Assembly (NCBI GenBank): GCA_032654705.1
Contig: JAULAZ010000003.1
Location: 2,695,571 to 2,759,570, forward strand
Length of the DNA: 64,000 nt
Source: Chitinophagaceae bacterium
Lineage (GTDB): Bacteria; Bacteroidota; Bacteroidia; Chitinophagales; Chitinophagaceae
Reading direction: 5' to 3'
Shown here: positions 26,953 to 30,911 of the stretch, in pieces
How the letters are laid out: each line of letters starts with the position of its first letter
Numbering within the stretch: position 1 is the first letter of the stretch
Made by a program: the position numbers and the translations under genes
The notes under the pieces: model-generated
Database searches by the model: none
What the model was told of the DNA's origin: nothing
What the model saw: only the letters and a program-made list of their open reading frames with translations

Positions 26953-27417
26953 TTACATCACTTTTACATTACGGTTAAAGCTTTCATCCAAAGAAATAAA
27001 TGTTTCGGTACGTTCAATGCCTTTTATTTTCTGCAACTGGTCATGCAGCACAAATTTCAACTGCGAAATATCTTTACAAACAATTTCTGCAAACATGCTG
27101 TAATTGCCCGTGGTATAATTCAACCGTACAATCTCAGATATTTTCTGCAATTCTTTAGCCACGGAATCATACAAGGAACTTTCTTTCAGGTAAATCCCAA
27201 TAAAAGCAATAACATCATGCCCCATTTGCTTCAGATCTATCTTAAGCCTTGAACCTGTTACCACTCCTGCCTCCTGCAGTTTCTTAATACGAACATGAAT
27301 GGTGCCACCGGACACAAATAGTTTCTTTCCCAGATCAGCATAAGATATCTCTGCATTCTCCATCATGTGCTGGATAATCTGCAGATCCAATTTGTCAAGA
27401 TTTAATTTAGCAGGCAT
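26953..27417 (-). CDS. Lrp/AsnC family transcriptional regulator
   Basis: 154 aa with an N-terminal HTH (LDLQIIQHMMENAEISYADLGKKLFVSGGTIHVRIKKL) and a C-terminal RAM/AsnC_trans_reg domain. Confidence 0.9.
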   Translation of the reverse strand: MPAKLNLDKLDLQIIQHMMENAEISYADLGKKLFVSGGTIHVRIKKLQEAGVVTGSRLKIDLKQMGHDVIAFIGIYLKESSLYDSVAKELQKISEIVRLNYTTGNYSMFAEIVCKDISQLKFVLHDQLQKIKGIERTETFISLDESFNRNVKVM

Positions 27418-27507
27418 TTTGAATATGCTTTTTGAATATTTTCAAAATAATCAGCAAATATTTGAAAAATTTCTATAGTTTCAAAATAAGTGTTTGAAAA
27501 TTTTGAA
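27418..27507. promoter_or_regulatory. Array of TTTGAA/TTCAAA half-sites upstream of the Lrp gene (candidate operator region)
   Basis: TTTGAA occurs at 27418, 27431, 27461, 27493 and 27502. TTCAAA occurs at 27441 and 27480. The array includes the perfect 16-nt palindrome TTTGAATATTTTCAAA at 27431-27446. Confidence 0.4.
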
Positions 27508-27533
27508 CAAAACTGCTTACCCGCCTATATTTG
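27503..27533 (+). promoter_or_regulatory. Bacteroidota-type promoter (TTG -33 / TATATTTG -7)
   Basis: A TTG at 27503-27505 is followed 20 nt later by TATATTTG at 27526-27533. This matches the TTG-N(17-23)-TAnnTTTG consensus known for Bacteroidota sigma-A promoters. Confidence 0.45.
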
Positions 27534-27539
27534 GGCTAT

Positions 27540-27806
27540 CAAGTTCTTGATAATACTGTGGGGTGATGAAATGACGTAAGTCTGGCAGACATGCCCTCTT
27601 GTCTCGGGGGTGGGGAAAACAGAATAAACGTTGCATAACGCCGATCCGCCGACGGGCGGACCGACTGGGGTTGACCACCAGTAGGTTGAGAGTAGCACTC
27701 TCTATTCATTTGTGCAACAGCTAACTGCCCCGTGGAGGTTCGAACCCTTCCCCTACAGCTTGTATTGCTTTTTTTAAGCCCTCATATTCAAATGAGGGCT
27801 TTTTTA
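27540..27806 (+). ncRNA. Candidate structured RNA of undetermined class (tRNA-like T-arm, tmRNA-like 5' end), either stand-alone or a 5' leader
   Basis: No ORF is present. The segment is GC-enriched relative to its flanks. It has a promoter upstream and an intrinsic terminator at its end. Perfect hairpins lie at 27645-27660 and 27688-27702. A T-arm GGAGG-TTCGAAC-CCTTC lies at 27734-27750. A 7-bp closing helix pairs 27557-27563 with 27751-27757. Confidence 0.4.
27776..27806 (+). terminator. Rho-independent terminator
   Basis: aagccctcat-attcaa-atgagggctt followed by TTTTTATT. Confidence 0.7.
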
Positions 27807-27846
27807 TTCCGGGCTTTTCCGAAAAAAAATTTCCGAAATTTACATC

Positions 27847-28731
27847 ATGAAAAAAATACCACTACTCATTAGCCTTGTCGCCATTGGATTATTTACTCAT
27901 GCTCAAAAAGAAAAAATATATACTTCACTGGATGAGGCGCTGAAGCATTCTTCAGAAGTTTATATCCTTTCATTAAATAATCAAAAGCTGAAGGCTATTC
28001 CGGAAACTATTACACGGCTAACCAATCTTACCACCCTTAATGTGGCCGGCAACAAACTTACCTCTGTGCCTGAAAGCATTACCCGGATGGAAAATCTGAA
28101 AGAGCTAAACCTTAGTTTTAATAAGTTTAATTTCATACCAGAAACGGTTACCAGTATGCCCAACCTTACTGCACTGGATCTTAGCAATAATCATATTTCA
28201 TTTCTTCCCGAGTCAATTACCAAACTCATCAATCTCAAAAAGCTTTACCTGAATAATAACCTGCTAACCTCTCTTCCTGAATATTTTTCCAAAATGACCA
28301 GCCTTAATGAAATATATTTTTATGGCAACCTGCTGCGGTTTATCCCGGAAAGCATTTCCAATCTCAGCAAGCTGAATGAAATAGGGGTTGGTGGTAACTT
28401 GCTGACTTCGCTTCCTGAAAGTATGGACAAACTTGTTAACCTTAAATACCTTGCTTTGCCTTATAACCAGTTTACAACATTTCCGTCCTGCATTACCCAT
28501 CTTACATCACTTACCGTGCTGGACCTGAACGGAAACAAACTCGACTCACTACCAGAAAATATCAATAATCTAAAAGCGCTTACTGAATTATATCTTGAAT
28601 CAAATAAACTTACATCATTGCCCGAGTCTATAATAGAGTTGAGCCAGTTAACAATAATTAACCTGAAAAAGAATAGTTCTCTGAAGCTATCTCCTGCTGT
28701 AAAAAAATTTATTGAGAATAAAAAAATCTAA
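27847..28731 (+). CDS. Secreted leucine-rich repeat (LRR) protein
   Basis: 294 aa with a signal peptide followed by about 11 tandem 23-aa LRR units (LxxLxLxxNxLxSLPESIxxLxxL). Confidence 0.85.
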   Translation: MKKIPLLISLVAIGLFTHAQKEKIYTSLDEALKHSSEVYILSLNNQKLKAIPETITRLTNLTTLNVAGNKLTSVPESITRMENLKELNLSFNKFNFIPETVTSMPNLTALDLSNNHISFLPESITKLINLKKLYLNNNLLTSLPEYFSKMTSLNEIYFYGNLLRFIPESISNLSKLNEIGVGGNLLTSLPESMDKLVNLKYLALPYNQFTTFPSCITHLTSLTVLDLNGNKLDSLPENINNLKALTELYLESNKLTSLPESIIELSQLTIINLKKNSSLKLSPAVKKFIENKKI

Positions 28732-28823
28732 AATTTTCCTGTCAGGTAATAAGCAGGATATGCTACTTTACTATTCAGTAAAGGCTACGCAATTTTTTTT
28801 ACACATCCTTATCTTTGCCGGTC

Positions 28824-29525
28824 ATGGGTCAAAAAAAACTGGAACGGTTTGCTGAGCTGAACACTTTTTCTAATGTGCTCCAGTTTCCGAAAGACATGGC
28901 AGGCAATTGGAATGATTTTTTTAAAAACAATCACTCCATCATTCTTGAACTGGCCTGTGGCAAAGGAGAATATGCTGTTGGCCTGGGGCAATTATTTCCT
29001 TCCAAAAATTTTATTGGAATTGATTTAAAAGGAAACCGCATCTGGGTGGGGGCCAAAAAAGCATTACAAAATAATTTAATCAATGTAGCTTTTCTTCGAA
29101 CAGAAATAGACCAGGTAACGGAATACTTTGCCAAAGATGAAGTTGCTGAAATATGGATTACTTTTCCCGACCCGCAACTACGAAAATCAAAAGCCAAAAA
29201 GCGGCTTACGCATCCAAAATTTTTACGGCTGTATAAACAATTTTTAGCCCCCGGTGGTTTAATACACCTGAAAACCGATAGCCCGGATCTATACCGGTTT
29301 ACCAAACTGGTAATTGAGTTATATGGTTGTTATTTAAAAAAAGATTCAGATAATATTTATATAGAAGAATCTGTTGACGAAGAGTTGAAAATAAAAACTC
29401 ATTACGAATCATTGGATATTTCCGGAAGTAAAAAAATTCATTATCTCTGTTTTTCTTTGCCCGAAAACTTACCCGGCAAAGAAAAAGATGATGAACTAAA
29501 ACAGCTGCTTAAAGAAACTGACTGA
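28824..29525 (+). CDS. trmB: tRNA (guanine46-N7)-methyltransferase TrmB
   Basis: LELACGKGEY SAM-binding motif, and FPDPQLRKSKAKKRL, typical of TrmB. I used the ATG at 28824; the track start is a TTG at 28815. Confidence 0.85.
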   Translation: MGQKKLERFAELNTFSNVLQFPKDMAGNWNDFFKNNHSIILELACGKGEYAVGLGQLFPSKNFIGIDLKGNRIWVGAKKALQNNLINVAFLRTEIDQVTEYFAKDEVAEIWITFPDPQLRKSKAKKRLTHPKFLRLYKQFLAPGGLIHLKTDSPDLYRFTKLVIELYGCYLKKDSDNIYIEESVDEELKIKTHYESLDISGSKKIHYLCFSLPENLPGKEKDDELKQLLKETD

Positions 29526-29562: not shown

Positions 29563-29952
29563 ATGACCTCAAAGAAAAAATCATCTGAAAAAATAAAATC
29601 AATACGACCCTCCGGTAAAAGAGAAGAGAATTTTTTTGAACTGGTTTTTGAAGTAGCCCGGCAAATACCGAAGGGAAGAGTAACCTCTTATGGCGCTATT
29701 GCCGCCTGTCTTGGCGCCAAATCATCAGCCCGCATGGTAGGCTGGGCCATGAATGGTTGTCATCGTGTAAGACCGAAAGTGCCGGCACATCGTGTGGTGA
29801 ATCGTTTGGGTATTTTATCAGGCAAGCATCATTTTTCTCCGCCCGGTATGATGGAAAAATTATTAAAGAAAGAAGGCGTTAAGGTAAAGAACGACCAGGT
29901 AGTTGATTTTAAAAAACTCTTTTGGGATCCGGTTGAGGAAATGGGATTTTAA
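29563..29952 (+). CDS. MGMT-family DNA-binding protein lacking the acceptor cysteine (alkyltransferase-like, ATL/YbaZ type)
   Basis: 129 aa. It has the YGAIA helix-turn-helix region and VPAHRVVN where true MGMTs carry PCHRV (Cys replaced by Ala). Confidence 0.75.
   Translation: MTSKKKSSEKIKSIRPSGKREENFFELVFEVARQIPKGRVTSYGAIAACLGAKSSARMVGWAMNGCHRVRPKVPAHRVVNRLGILSGKHHFSPPGMMEKLLKKEGVKVKNDQVVDFKKLFWDPVEEMGF
29848..29952 (+). repeat. Direct repeat copy 1: the native 3' end of the ATL gene
   Basis: Encodes MMEKLLKKEGVKVKNDQVVDFKKLFWDPVEEMGF*. Homologous copies lie at 30907-30977, 33389-33491 and 34119-34161. Confidence 0.8.
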
Positions 29953-30024: not shown

Positions 30025-30330
30025 ATGGAAACGCCCAAACCCAAACCTGTATTCAATCGCCGCATCTTCTGGGATGTAAATTTTGACAAATTAGATTATG
30101 ATGGCAAAGCCTCTTTTATCATCGAAAGGGTTTTTGAACGGGGCGATGTGGATGACATTCGCCAGTGCCGGAGATATTACGGGGATGAGAAAGTGACTGA
30201 AGTTTTACTAAATGCAAAATACTTACCTGAAAGAAGACTTCATTTGGCCGCTGCTGTTATTGATAAACCTGTTACCGAATTCAGATGCTACATCTTGAGA
30301 CAGTCGAACCCGGGACTTTTTCCGTATTAA
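30025..30330 (+). CDS. DUF6922-like small protein (putative antitoxin partner of the AbiEii-like gene)
   Basis: 101 aa. The IFWDVNFDKLDYDGKASFIIERVFERGDVDD... pattern is one I recall from small ORFs that precede Bacteroidota AbiEii-family genes. It overlaps the next ORF by 46 nt. Confidence 0.55.
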   Translation: METPKPKPVFNRRIFWDVNFDKLDYDGKASFIIERVFERGDVDDIRQCRRYYGDEKVTEVLLNAKYLPERRLHLAAAVIDKPVTEFRCYILRQSNPGLFPY

Positions 30331-30911
30331 AACGTTTGATGCGCCTGAAAGCGTTGCTGCCCTTTTCATTAGTGGGCGGCACTGCTTTATCATTACGGTA
30401 TGGCCATCGCACATCTGTTGATATTGATTTATTTTATGAAAATAAATTTGATCATGAGCCCATTGTAAAGGCCCTAAAGAAAGAATTCGGAAAAGGATAT
30501 GGCACAGAAAGCCGGTATTATCGCTGGGGGATATTCTGTTATCTCGATGGGGTGAAAGTGGATATTGTGCATCATCCTCACCCGTTAATTTGGGAAACTG
30601 AAGTAGTTGATGGTATCAGGATCTATGACGACAGGGACATTATTGCCATGAAGATAAATGCGATACTAGGCCGGGGAAAAAAGAAAGACTTCTGGGATTT
30701 GTATGAGTTGCTGCATCATTATTCATTAAAAGAGATAATTGCATTCCACGAACAAAAATTTCCTGAACAAAACTTGCTTATCACTATCCCACAGGCCATC
30801 ACTTATTTTGATGATGCGGATGAAAGCGAAGACCCCATCAGCCTGAAAGGACAAACCTGGGAAACCGTGAAAAAATTTATTCAGCAAAAAGTAAGTGATT
30901 TTTTACGCTGA
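30285..30911 (+). CDS. Nucleotidyltransferase AbiEii/AbiGii toxin-family protein
   Basis: 208 aa. It has the N-terminal LVGGTALSLRYGHRTSVDIDLF (GG...S.DIDLF NTase motif). Confidence 0.7.
   Translation: MLHLETVEPGTFSVLKRLMRLKALLPFSLVGGTALSLRYGHRTSVDIDLFYENKFDHEPIVKALKKEFGKGYGTESRYYRWGIFCYLDGVKVDIVHHPHPLIWETEVVDGIRIYDDRDIIAMKINAILGRGKKKDFWDLYELLHHYSLKEIIAFHEQKFPEQNLLITIPQAITYFDDADESEDPISLKGQTWETVKKFIQQKVSDFLR

Follow-up and report, generated by a model that had tools for sequence, protein, structure and literature searches.

The window analysed here is the whole 64,000-nucleotide (nt) stretch of Chitinophagaceae bacterium DNA (contig JAULAZ010000003.1, positions 2,695,571 to 2,759,570), and all positions below are those of the window unless a contig is named. 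It carries at 27557-27759 (+) what we predict to be a stand-alone RNA gene, served by a promoter and a terminator of its own and specifying an RNA of about 205 nt. From its sequence and that of its relatives, this RNA appears to be a complete tRNA cloverleaf with the anticodon arm of an aspartate tRNA, in which a branched domain of about 120 nt replaces the variable loop. We are highly confident that the gene exists and that the cloverleaf is its fold. The RNA family is missing from Rfam 15 and is overlooked by tRNA finders. For its function we put forward a proposal that we judge about as likely to be right as wrong. The RNA would be a tRNA mimic under the control of an AsnC-type regulator, charged with aspartate by aspartyl-tRNA synthetase (AspRS) and amidated to asparagine by GatCAB, off the ribosome.

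The coordinates of the parts are collected in Table 1. The 5' acceptor strand is followed by U8 and G9, and G26 stands between the D stem and the anticodon stem. The D loop holds an invariant GGCAG together with a lineage-specific hairpin at 27573-27582. The anticodon GUC occupies 27601-27603, with U37 at 27604 and C38 at 27605. The variable arm opens with two base helices (27612-27615/27728-27731 and 27620-27622/27725-27727), passes through an internal loop (AAUAAAC/AGCUAA) whose core AUAAA/CUAA is nearly invariant, and continues through a helix at 27631-27639/27709-27717 to three terminal hairpins (27642-27663, 27666-27680 and 27688-27702). Across the family, this arm is branched and measures about 40-150 nt, which makes up most of the difference in whole-RNA length (112 to 230 nt); the D loop ranges from 11 to 23 nt.

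Several of these elements had been picked out in the original prediction, which was made from the letters of the window. The T arm GGAGG-TTCGAAC-CCTTC (27734-27750) is present and of tRNA type, with a covarying pair 50-64, and the closing helix of TGTGGGG (27557-27563) with CCCTACA (27751-27757) is the acceptor stem. The hairpins noted at 27645-27660 and 27688-27702 also exist. Other elements call for a different reading. The stem AGACA/TGTCT with its CCC-GGGGG pseudoknot is better read as the 3' strand of the D stem plus the anticodon stem-loop, and the supposed tmRNA-like 5' end is the acceptor strand and D arm. The mini-frame 'GENRINVA' (27612-27638) falls within covarying paired strands of the variable arm. 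The complete cloverleaf, with its GUC anticodon arm and giant variable arm, had been overlooked.

The fold is carried by three alignments, whose covariation reveals a complete tRNA cloverleaf. In the first, made of 25 BLAST-derived sequences from close relatives, 97.8% of the pair cells hold standard pairs and 22 of the 47 pairs show compensatory changes; slid pairings, used as controls, are 45-55% paired. Loci were also fetched with a 29-nt pattern taken from the most conserved stretch of the RNA. Since this pattern sat in the anticodon arm, the fetched loci are biased there and the invariance of that arm is partly by construction. For this reason a second set was built from the 27 most divergent true matches of a purpose-built covariance model, without selection by the pattern. 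In this set, 96.5% of the cells are paired and 26 of the 47 pairs are compensatory. The D stem is invariant in the close relatives but covaries in the divergent set (A-U to G-C, U-A to C-G). The anticodon stem is 100% paired, and its U.G pair becomes C-G or U-A. Acceptor pairs 3-7 covary, with U1-A72 and G2-C71 invariant in 27/27 divergent members. Compensatory changes are seen in the acceptor, D and T stems, and all four arms are 96-98% paired. The helices thus covary in relatives, and the two sets agree. Two other foldings were dropped, namely the hairpins GGCA/UGCC and CUCUUG/CGGGGG offered by RNAalifold and the AGACA/UGUCU pseudoknot; the cloverleaf accommodates all observed substitutions, including the covariation of the D stem.

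The gene lies in a gap (27418-27846) that has an Lrp/AsnC-family gene on one side (26953-27417, -) and an LRR gene on the other (27847-28731, +). The segment between promoter and terminator, about 240 nt, is without a credible open reading frame (ORF), and the gap, in which the original prediction had placed an ORF-free segment, is indeed ORF-poor. The promoter TTG-N20-TATATTTG and the intrinsic terminator were both found where they had been placed, and the plus strand of the RNA segment folds more stably than its dinucleotide shuffles (z = -3.2). The earlier idea of a discrete structured RNA running from promoter to terminator is supported. The 5' leader (27540-27556) is conserved in part within the genus. 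The terminators of relatives lie in the same place and are not homologous to that of the window.

Table 1. The predicted RNA gene and its control signals, by position in the window
Feature	Position	Strand	Remarks
AsnC-like transcription regulator gene, 154 aa	26953..27417	-	Divergent from the RNA gene; Pfam AsnC_trans_reg and HTH_AsnC
AT-rich shared control region with repeated TTTGAA/TTCAAA half-sites	27418..27502	.	Read from the sequence
Putative Bacteroidota-type promoter: TTG, 20 nt, TATATTTG	27503..27533	+	Read from the sequence; promoter-like scan match at 27503-27531
Predicted 5' leader, probably removed by RNase P	27540..27556	+	Between the -7 box and acceptor U1
Acceptor stem, 5' strand UGUGGGG (U1, G2, U3, G4-G7)	27557..27563	+	Pairs with 27751-27757 (7 bp)
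D arm, 3-bp stem AUG/CAU (27566-68/27590-92), 21-nt loop	27566..27592	+	
Anticodon arm, stem CCCUC/GGGGG (27594-98/27606-10), loop UUGUCUC	27594..27610	+	
Giant branched variable arm	27611..27733	+	Compensatory changes in nearly every pair
T arm GGAGG, UUCGAAC, CCUUC	27734..27750	+	Canonical 5-bp stem, 7-nt loop
Acceptor stem, 3' strand CCCUACA, discriminator G73 (27758), C74 (27759)	27751..27759	+	CCA not encoded
Intrinsic terminator	27776..27806	+	10-bp stem (27776-27801), 6-nt loop, then T run

Known RNA models do not describe this locus. A search of the whole window with Rfam 15 at gathering thresholds gave no match there, and a search of 27400-27900 at E <= 10 returned terminator-like noise only. 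ARAGORN in normal mode called no tRNA or tmRNA in the window; its intron-mode call of a 'tRNA-Asn(att)' with a 112-nt intron is a spurious forced call and was discarded. Searches of the accessible literature found no description of this RNA.

The family is well represented in the order Chitinophagales. By BLASTN, 27 of the 36 congeners have homologues, as do 8 of the 24 further families of the order that were sampled, and some of the copies stand in tandem. The 29-nt pattern matches 5 viral contigs and at least 120 named genomes, of which nearly all bear a Chitinophagales label (the labels include Chitinophagaceae, Saprospiraceae, Lewinellaceae and Haliscomenobacter). Cultured bacteria among the carriers are Chitinophaga pinensis, Niabella defluvii and Terrimonas; a few genomes bear a phylum- or class-level label only, or a Sphingobacteriales label, and the closest match to the window is a Chitinophagaceae metagenome-assembled genome. 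With the covariance model, true members score at least 97 bits, and class II tRNAs are the sole cross-matches, at 33-58 bits. By this measure, 75 of the 151 genomes sampled from the order, each at least 90% complete, carry the RNA. A phylum-wide sample outside the order has it only in one more family of the class (2/2) and in one genome of another class. In the source genome (3.66 Mb) the gene is single-copy. An abundant and easily recognised RNA gene family is thereby added to genome annotation.

All five viral contigs hold true family members (121-130 bits). On one of them (L157:1-2903) the RNA lies within an array of 17 tRNAs, straight after tRNA-Asp and tRNA-Asn. Another (L159:278-2963) carries tRNAs and a phage tmRNA, which the RNA adjoins. 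Placement in phage tRNA arrays fits tRNA-type processing, and carriage by phages shows that the RNA is useful enough for them to carry.

Copies and variants were also observed. Three to five head-to-tail copies occur at G149:C55:81332-82228, G106:C137:14486-15084, G134:C3:247143-247663 and G038:C218:28234-28625. The second tandem copies at L011:1455-1700 (-) and L018:1240-1493 (-) are without the acceptor 5' strand and the 5' part of the D arm, and that of L011 has an unrelated GC hairpin instead of the T arm; both look like decaying duplicates or processed variants. In a genome of another order of the same class (G311), tandem members at L192:11-123 and L192:233-344 have the anticodon UUC (Glu), with U1-A72, G73 and the rest of the frame kept. 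As U1-A72 tRNAs charged with Glu are amidated by GatCAB too, these members are a possible glutamate/glutamine counterpart.

The conserved bases of the RNA match what AspRS and GatCAB are known to recognise. The identity set of bacterial tRNA-Asp consists of G73, G10, G34, U35, C36 and C38; G2-C71 makes a minor contribution (PMC9976931). Bacterial GatCAB requires only U1-A72, and it makes no difference whether position 36 is C or U; on a tRNA-Asp with U1-A72 and without U20A, one extra D-loop base that acts as an antideterminant, the enzyme works with about the same efficiency as on tRNA-Asn (PMC1635274). U1-A72 is tolerated by those AspRS enzymes that accept tRNA-Asn. The window RNA carries G73, G34, U35, C36 and C38, which are major determinants for bacterial AspRS, and the minor element G2-C71. 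The 27 divergent members all have U1-A72, G2-C71, G73, C74, U35, C36 and C38, and 25 of them have G34; U1-A72 is also found in all 25 close relatives. The canonical tRNAs of the source genome have G1-C72 (tRNA-Asp) and U1-A72 (tRNA-Asn), and, like the RNA, both have G73-C74 at the 3' end and no encoded CCA.

The anticodon loop has a different character. U33 and a purine at position 37 are near-universal in decoding tRNAs. The divergent set has U, C or G at position 33 and a pyrimidine (U or C) at position 37, apart from one member with G37. Because position 33 is variable and position 37 is mostly a pyrimidine, both non-canonical, we conclude from the sequence that the RNA should not decode.

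The distribution of the RNA follows that of GatCAB. Among the 151 genomes, asparaginyl-tRNA synthetase (AsnRS) is present in 149, glutaminyl-tRNA synthetase (GlnRS) in 81 and GatB in 124. Given AsnRS in 149/151, GatCAB is never needed there for Asn-tRNA-Asn. GatB is found in 74 of the 75 genomes with the RNA, the sole exception being a fragmented assembly. We chose the 81 genomes with both synthetases, in which GatCAB is dispensable for translation. In 51 of these the RNA and GatB are both present and in 24 both are absent; GatB without the RNA occurs in 6 and the RNA without GatB in none. GatB thus accompanies 51/51 genomes with the RNA and 6/30 without it. The nominal Fisher p for this table is 3e-15; since related genomes do not count as independent observations, it cannot be taken as a true probability. 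The joint absences span at least 10 lineages, including contrasts within a genus (G040 against G065, and G169 against six congeners). The source genome itself has GatB, GlnRS, AsnRS and one bacterial-type AspRS. The idea that a second, non-discriminating AspRS accompanies the RNA fails in the source genome on this single AspRS.

The gene divergent from the RNA gene provides a further link to asparagine. Among solved structures, the best relative of its product is E. coli AsnC (2cg4) at 123 bits, ahead of the next one at 68 bits and of Lrp at 41. Against the NCBIfam models it reaches 162 bits for AsnC, below the 227-bit cut-off, and 52 bits for Lrp. This homology points specifically to an AsnC-like rather than an Lrp-like regulator. 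When 119 loci of the family were compared, a 156-aa AsnC-like gene was found directly upstream and divergent at 84; the only other recurrent genes, both downstream neighbours, are trmB (27/119) and an Ogt-like gene (18/119), and the LRR gene is local to the source genome. In the 151-genome sample, the AsnC-like gene is present in 75/75 genomes with the RNA and in 17/76 without it. In families f1 and f25, every genome has either all three of the RNA, GatB and the AsnC-like gene or none of them. TTTGAA/TTCAAA half-sites are dense over 27418-27507, between the AsnC-like gene and the RNA promoter; since the array overlaps the -33 TTG, it is a likely AsnC operator.

This arrangement recalls the E. 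coli asnC-asnA divergon, in which an AsnC-type regulator stands divergent from the asparagine synthetase gene that it controls. The likeness lies in the divergent AsnC-type regulator, its target and the supply of asparagine. In contrast to E. coli, an RNA gene would here take the place of asnA, and AsnA, which is rare in the order (10/151), is absent from the source genome. The idea that AsnA adjoins the AsnC-like gene where the RNA is missing was tried and fails in G124 and G065.

We propose the following course of events. The divergent AsnC-like regulator would adjust transcription of the RNA to asparagine, as its position and homology suggest. The transcript would be trimmed by RNase P and 3' nucleases and receive CCA as the other tRNAs of the genome do; tRNA-like maturation is expected because of the acceptor/T minihelix and the G73-C74 end. 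The single bacterial-type AspRS could then charge the RNA with aspartate, its determinants G34-U35-C36, C38, G73 and G2-C71 being conserved. GatCAB, whose one required determinant U1-A72 is invariant, would convert the bound aspartate into asparagine. With its giant arm and its non-canonical positions 33 and 37, the RNA would be excluded from the ribosome, so that no asparagine would be inserted at aspartate codons. The asparagine would then be released or passed on. The RNA would thus serve as a dedicated cofactor that makes a discriminating AspRS and GatCAB into a regulated asparagine synthase.

The closest known system is the tRNA-Asn cofactor system of Thermus, Deinococcus, Bdellovibrio and Neisseria, in which AspRS and GatCAB act on tRNA-Asn. 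The RNA shares with it U1-A72, G73 and an anticodon arm that AspRS can recognise, and it accompanies GatCAB where AsnRS and GlnRS are both present already. Unlike tRNA-Asn, it has the anticodon GUC rather than GUU, so a discriminating AspRS would suffice. It further differs in its variable arm of about 100-120 nt, its enlarged D loop and its non-decoding positions 33 and 37, as well as in being paired with an AsnC-type regulator and in its proposed action off the ribosome.

The proposal offers a testable answer to the question of why bacteria with AsnRS and GlnRS keep GatCAB; in Chitinophagales this retention tracks the RNA almost perfectly. If true, it would account for the retention of GatCAB in many Bacteroidota that have both synthetases, and amino-acid biosynthesis would gain its first RNA cofactor apart from the decoding tRNA pool. 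A dedicated RNA would uncouple tRNA-dependent amino-acid synthesis from decoding, which bears on how the metabolic and translational roles of tRNA diverged. An arm of about 100 nt whose internal loop is invariant suggests a new module for RNA-protein or RNA-RNA recognition. The wider picture, in which a tRNA look-alike has been withdrawn from translation to become an AsnC-regulated cofactor, with a rare Glu-anticodon sister perhaps serving glutamine and with copies on phages, we advance tentatively, as somewhat short of an even chance.

A number of points weigh against this proposal. Six genomes with GlnRS and AsnRS have GatB without the RNA, and a lax-filter re-search of five of them still found no RNA. 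In the published account, genomes with AsnRS, GlnRS and GatCAB have a non-discriminating AspRS acting on tRNA-Asn (PMC4206432). Such an AspRS, working on ordinary tRNA-Asn (U1-A72 here), could explain GatCAB without the RNA. The chief caveat is that AsnB-family genes are present in 134/151 genomes, in 68/75 with the RNA and in 66/76 without it, and show no anticorrelation with it; the idea that the RNA replaces all asparagine synthetases was rejected on these counts. The source genome has two AsnB-family genes, one in a glycosyltransferase cluster and the other beside a gene for cystathionine gamma-synthase, and the latter may be a true asparagine synthetase. The RNA is therefore not the only possible route to asparagine. 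Complementarity between AsnA and the RNA is weak and local (in family f4, AsnA occurs in 4/4 genomes without the RNA and in 3/10 with it). In families f4 and f25, unlike most families, the AsnC-like gene is present but does not adjoin the RNA gene; in G039, for example, the RNA lies at C1:1663650 and the AsnC-like gene at C2:669231. Two determinants also depart from the bacterial tRNA-Asp pattern: position 10, a G in the identity set, is A in the window RNA and G in a few members, and pair 1-72 is U-A, where bacterial tRNA-Asp has G-C. The enlarged D loop (21 nt here) might block amidation by GatCAB, and we know of no tRNA with a D loop as large as that of this RNA. Finally, the proposal leaves the release of asparagine unexplained.

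Much of the same evidence would serve a purely regulatory tRNA mimic, an alternative that we consider unlikely but the most serious of those weighed. The RNA would act as a sensor, sponge or scaffold for AspRS, GatCAB or another tRNA-binding protein and deliver no amino acid; it could, for instance, report the Asp/Asn charging state. The conserved AspRS and GatCAB marks and the co-occurrence with GatB and the AsnC-like gene fit such a role. The variable arm has a large and conserved internal loop that resembles a candidate partner-binding site, and with AsnB-family genes present anyway a biosynthetic role is not forced. Against a mimic of this kind stand the invariant G73-C74, the acceptor/T minihelix and the placement in phage tRNA arrays, all of which agree with a 3' end that can be charged. 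Moreover, a pure decoy needs no invariant U1-A72, which counts at the catalytic step of GatCAB.

Alternatively, the RNA may be charged and then serve as an aminoacyl donor (Asp-RNA or Asn-RNA) for a non-ribosomal transferase in cell-wall, lipid or peptide modification. A tRNA-like yet non-decoding design would suit this purpose, and there is a precedent in the non-proteinogenic tRNA-Gly of staphylococci, which serves the Fem transferases; such dedicated tRNAs are found in some Gram-positive bacteria. The tandem multi-copy arrays of some genomes suggest high demand. However, there is no transferase among the conserved neighbours, which are the AsnC-like gene and, in 27/119 loci, trmB, and asparagine metabolism accounts better for the tie to GatB and AsnC. 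We therefore regard a donor role as improbable.

More improbable still is a role in translation as an elongator tRNA with an oversized class II arm, in which the RNA would read aspartate codons and insert aspartate, or asparagine as a form of regulated recoding. The complete cloverleaf, the 7-nt anticodon loop with GUC, the GG of the D loop and a T loop capable of forming the elbow would allow it, and the neighbours in phage arrays are ordinary tRNAs. On the other side stand the variation of position 33 (U, C, G) and the usual pyrimidine at position 37, the canonical tRNA-Asp(GUC) already present in the source genome, the rejection of the locus by ARAGORN and an arm 5-6 times longer than any class II arm. 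Class II tRNAs (Leu, Ser and bacterial Tyr), tRNA-Sec and allo-tRNAs do share an additional helical arm, inserted between anticodon arm and T arm. Their arms, however, measure about 10-25 nt, are unbranched and belong to decoding molecules, whereas the arm of this RNA is branched with a conserved internal loop.

Hardly credible, in our judgement, is a tmRNA-like RNA with a mini-tag, or a cis leader or ydaO-like riboswitch for the LRR gene, although the 5' and 3' ends form a minihelix like that of the tmRNA tRNA-like domain, a short frame with a stop lies at 27612-27638 and a terminator follows the structure. The original prediction had raised these kinships while doubting tmRNA and leaving the class open, and that caution was justified. 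The source genome has a canonical 372-nt tmRNA elsewhere (C3:676682-677053, 108 bits, tag GNTQFAMAA), and a genome-wide search with RF00023 lists this true tmRNA and not the RNA locus. The acceptor/T-arm minihelix closing a large insert, and the presence on phages, are features that both RNAs share. But tmRNA lacks an anticodon arm and has the G3.U70 alanine identity, a resume codon with a tag frame, and pseudoknots, whereas this RNA has a full anticodon arm with aspartate marks and no supported frame, the suspected one sitting in covarying helices. The resemblances to ydaO (RF00379) and to the Y RNA YrlA found no Rfam match even at E <= 10. YrlA and other tRNA mimics are likewise non-coding and imitate tRNA elements; YrlA, however, goes with Rsr/Ro and has a long Ro-binding stem, whereas the conserved partner gene here is AsnC-like, and there is no Rsr-like protein among the annotated neighbours in the window. 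A cis leader is countered by the downstream gene, which varies among the 119 loci (trmB in 27, LRR here), and by the tandem copies and phage tRNA arrays in which the RNA occurs.

Some further features of the source genome and of the window were noted. Outside the window, at C3:186011-186487, the genome has an atypical tRNA cluster that includes a second tRNA-Asp(GUC) and a tRNA-Asn(GUU) with stems of the G1-C72 type; it may be the tRNA array of a prophage or island. Within the window, the gene for TrmB, the tRNA m7G46 methyltransferase (237 bits), lies at 28815-29525 (+). Its target, position 46, falls in the variable region, i.e., the part remodelled in this RNA, and the proximity of the two genes may be local synteny only. 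A gene with an Ogt-like DNA-binding domain follows at 29563-29952. Further downstream, a small ORF (30025-30330) precedes a gene for an AbiEii-type nucleotidyltransferase toxin (30285-30911, +), and the two are probably a type IV toxin-antitoxin pair.

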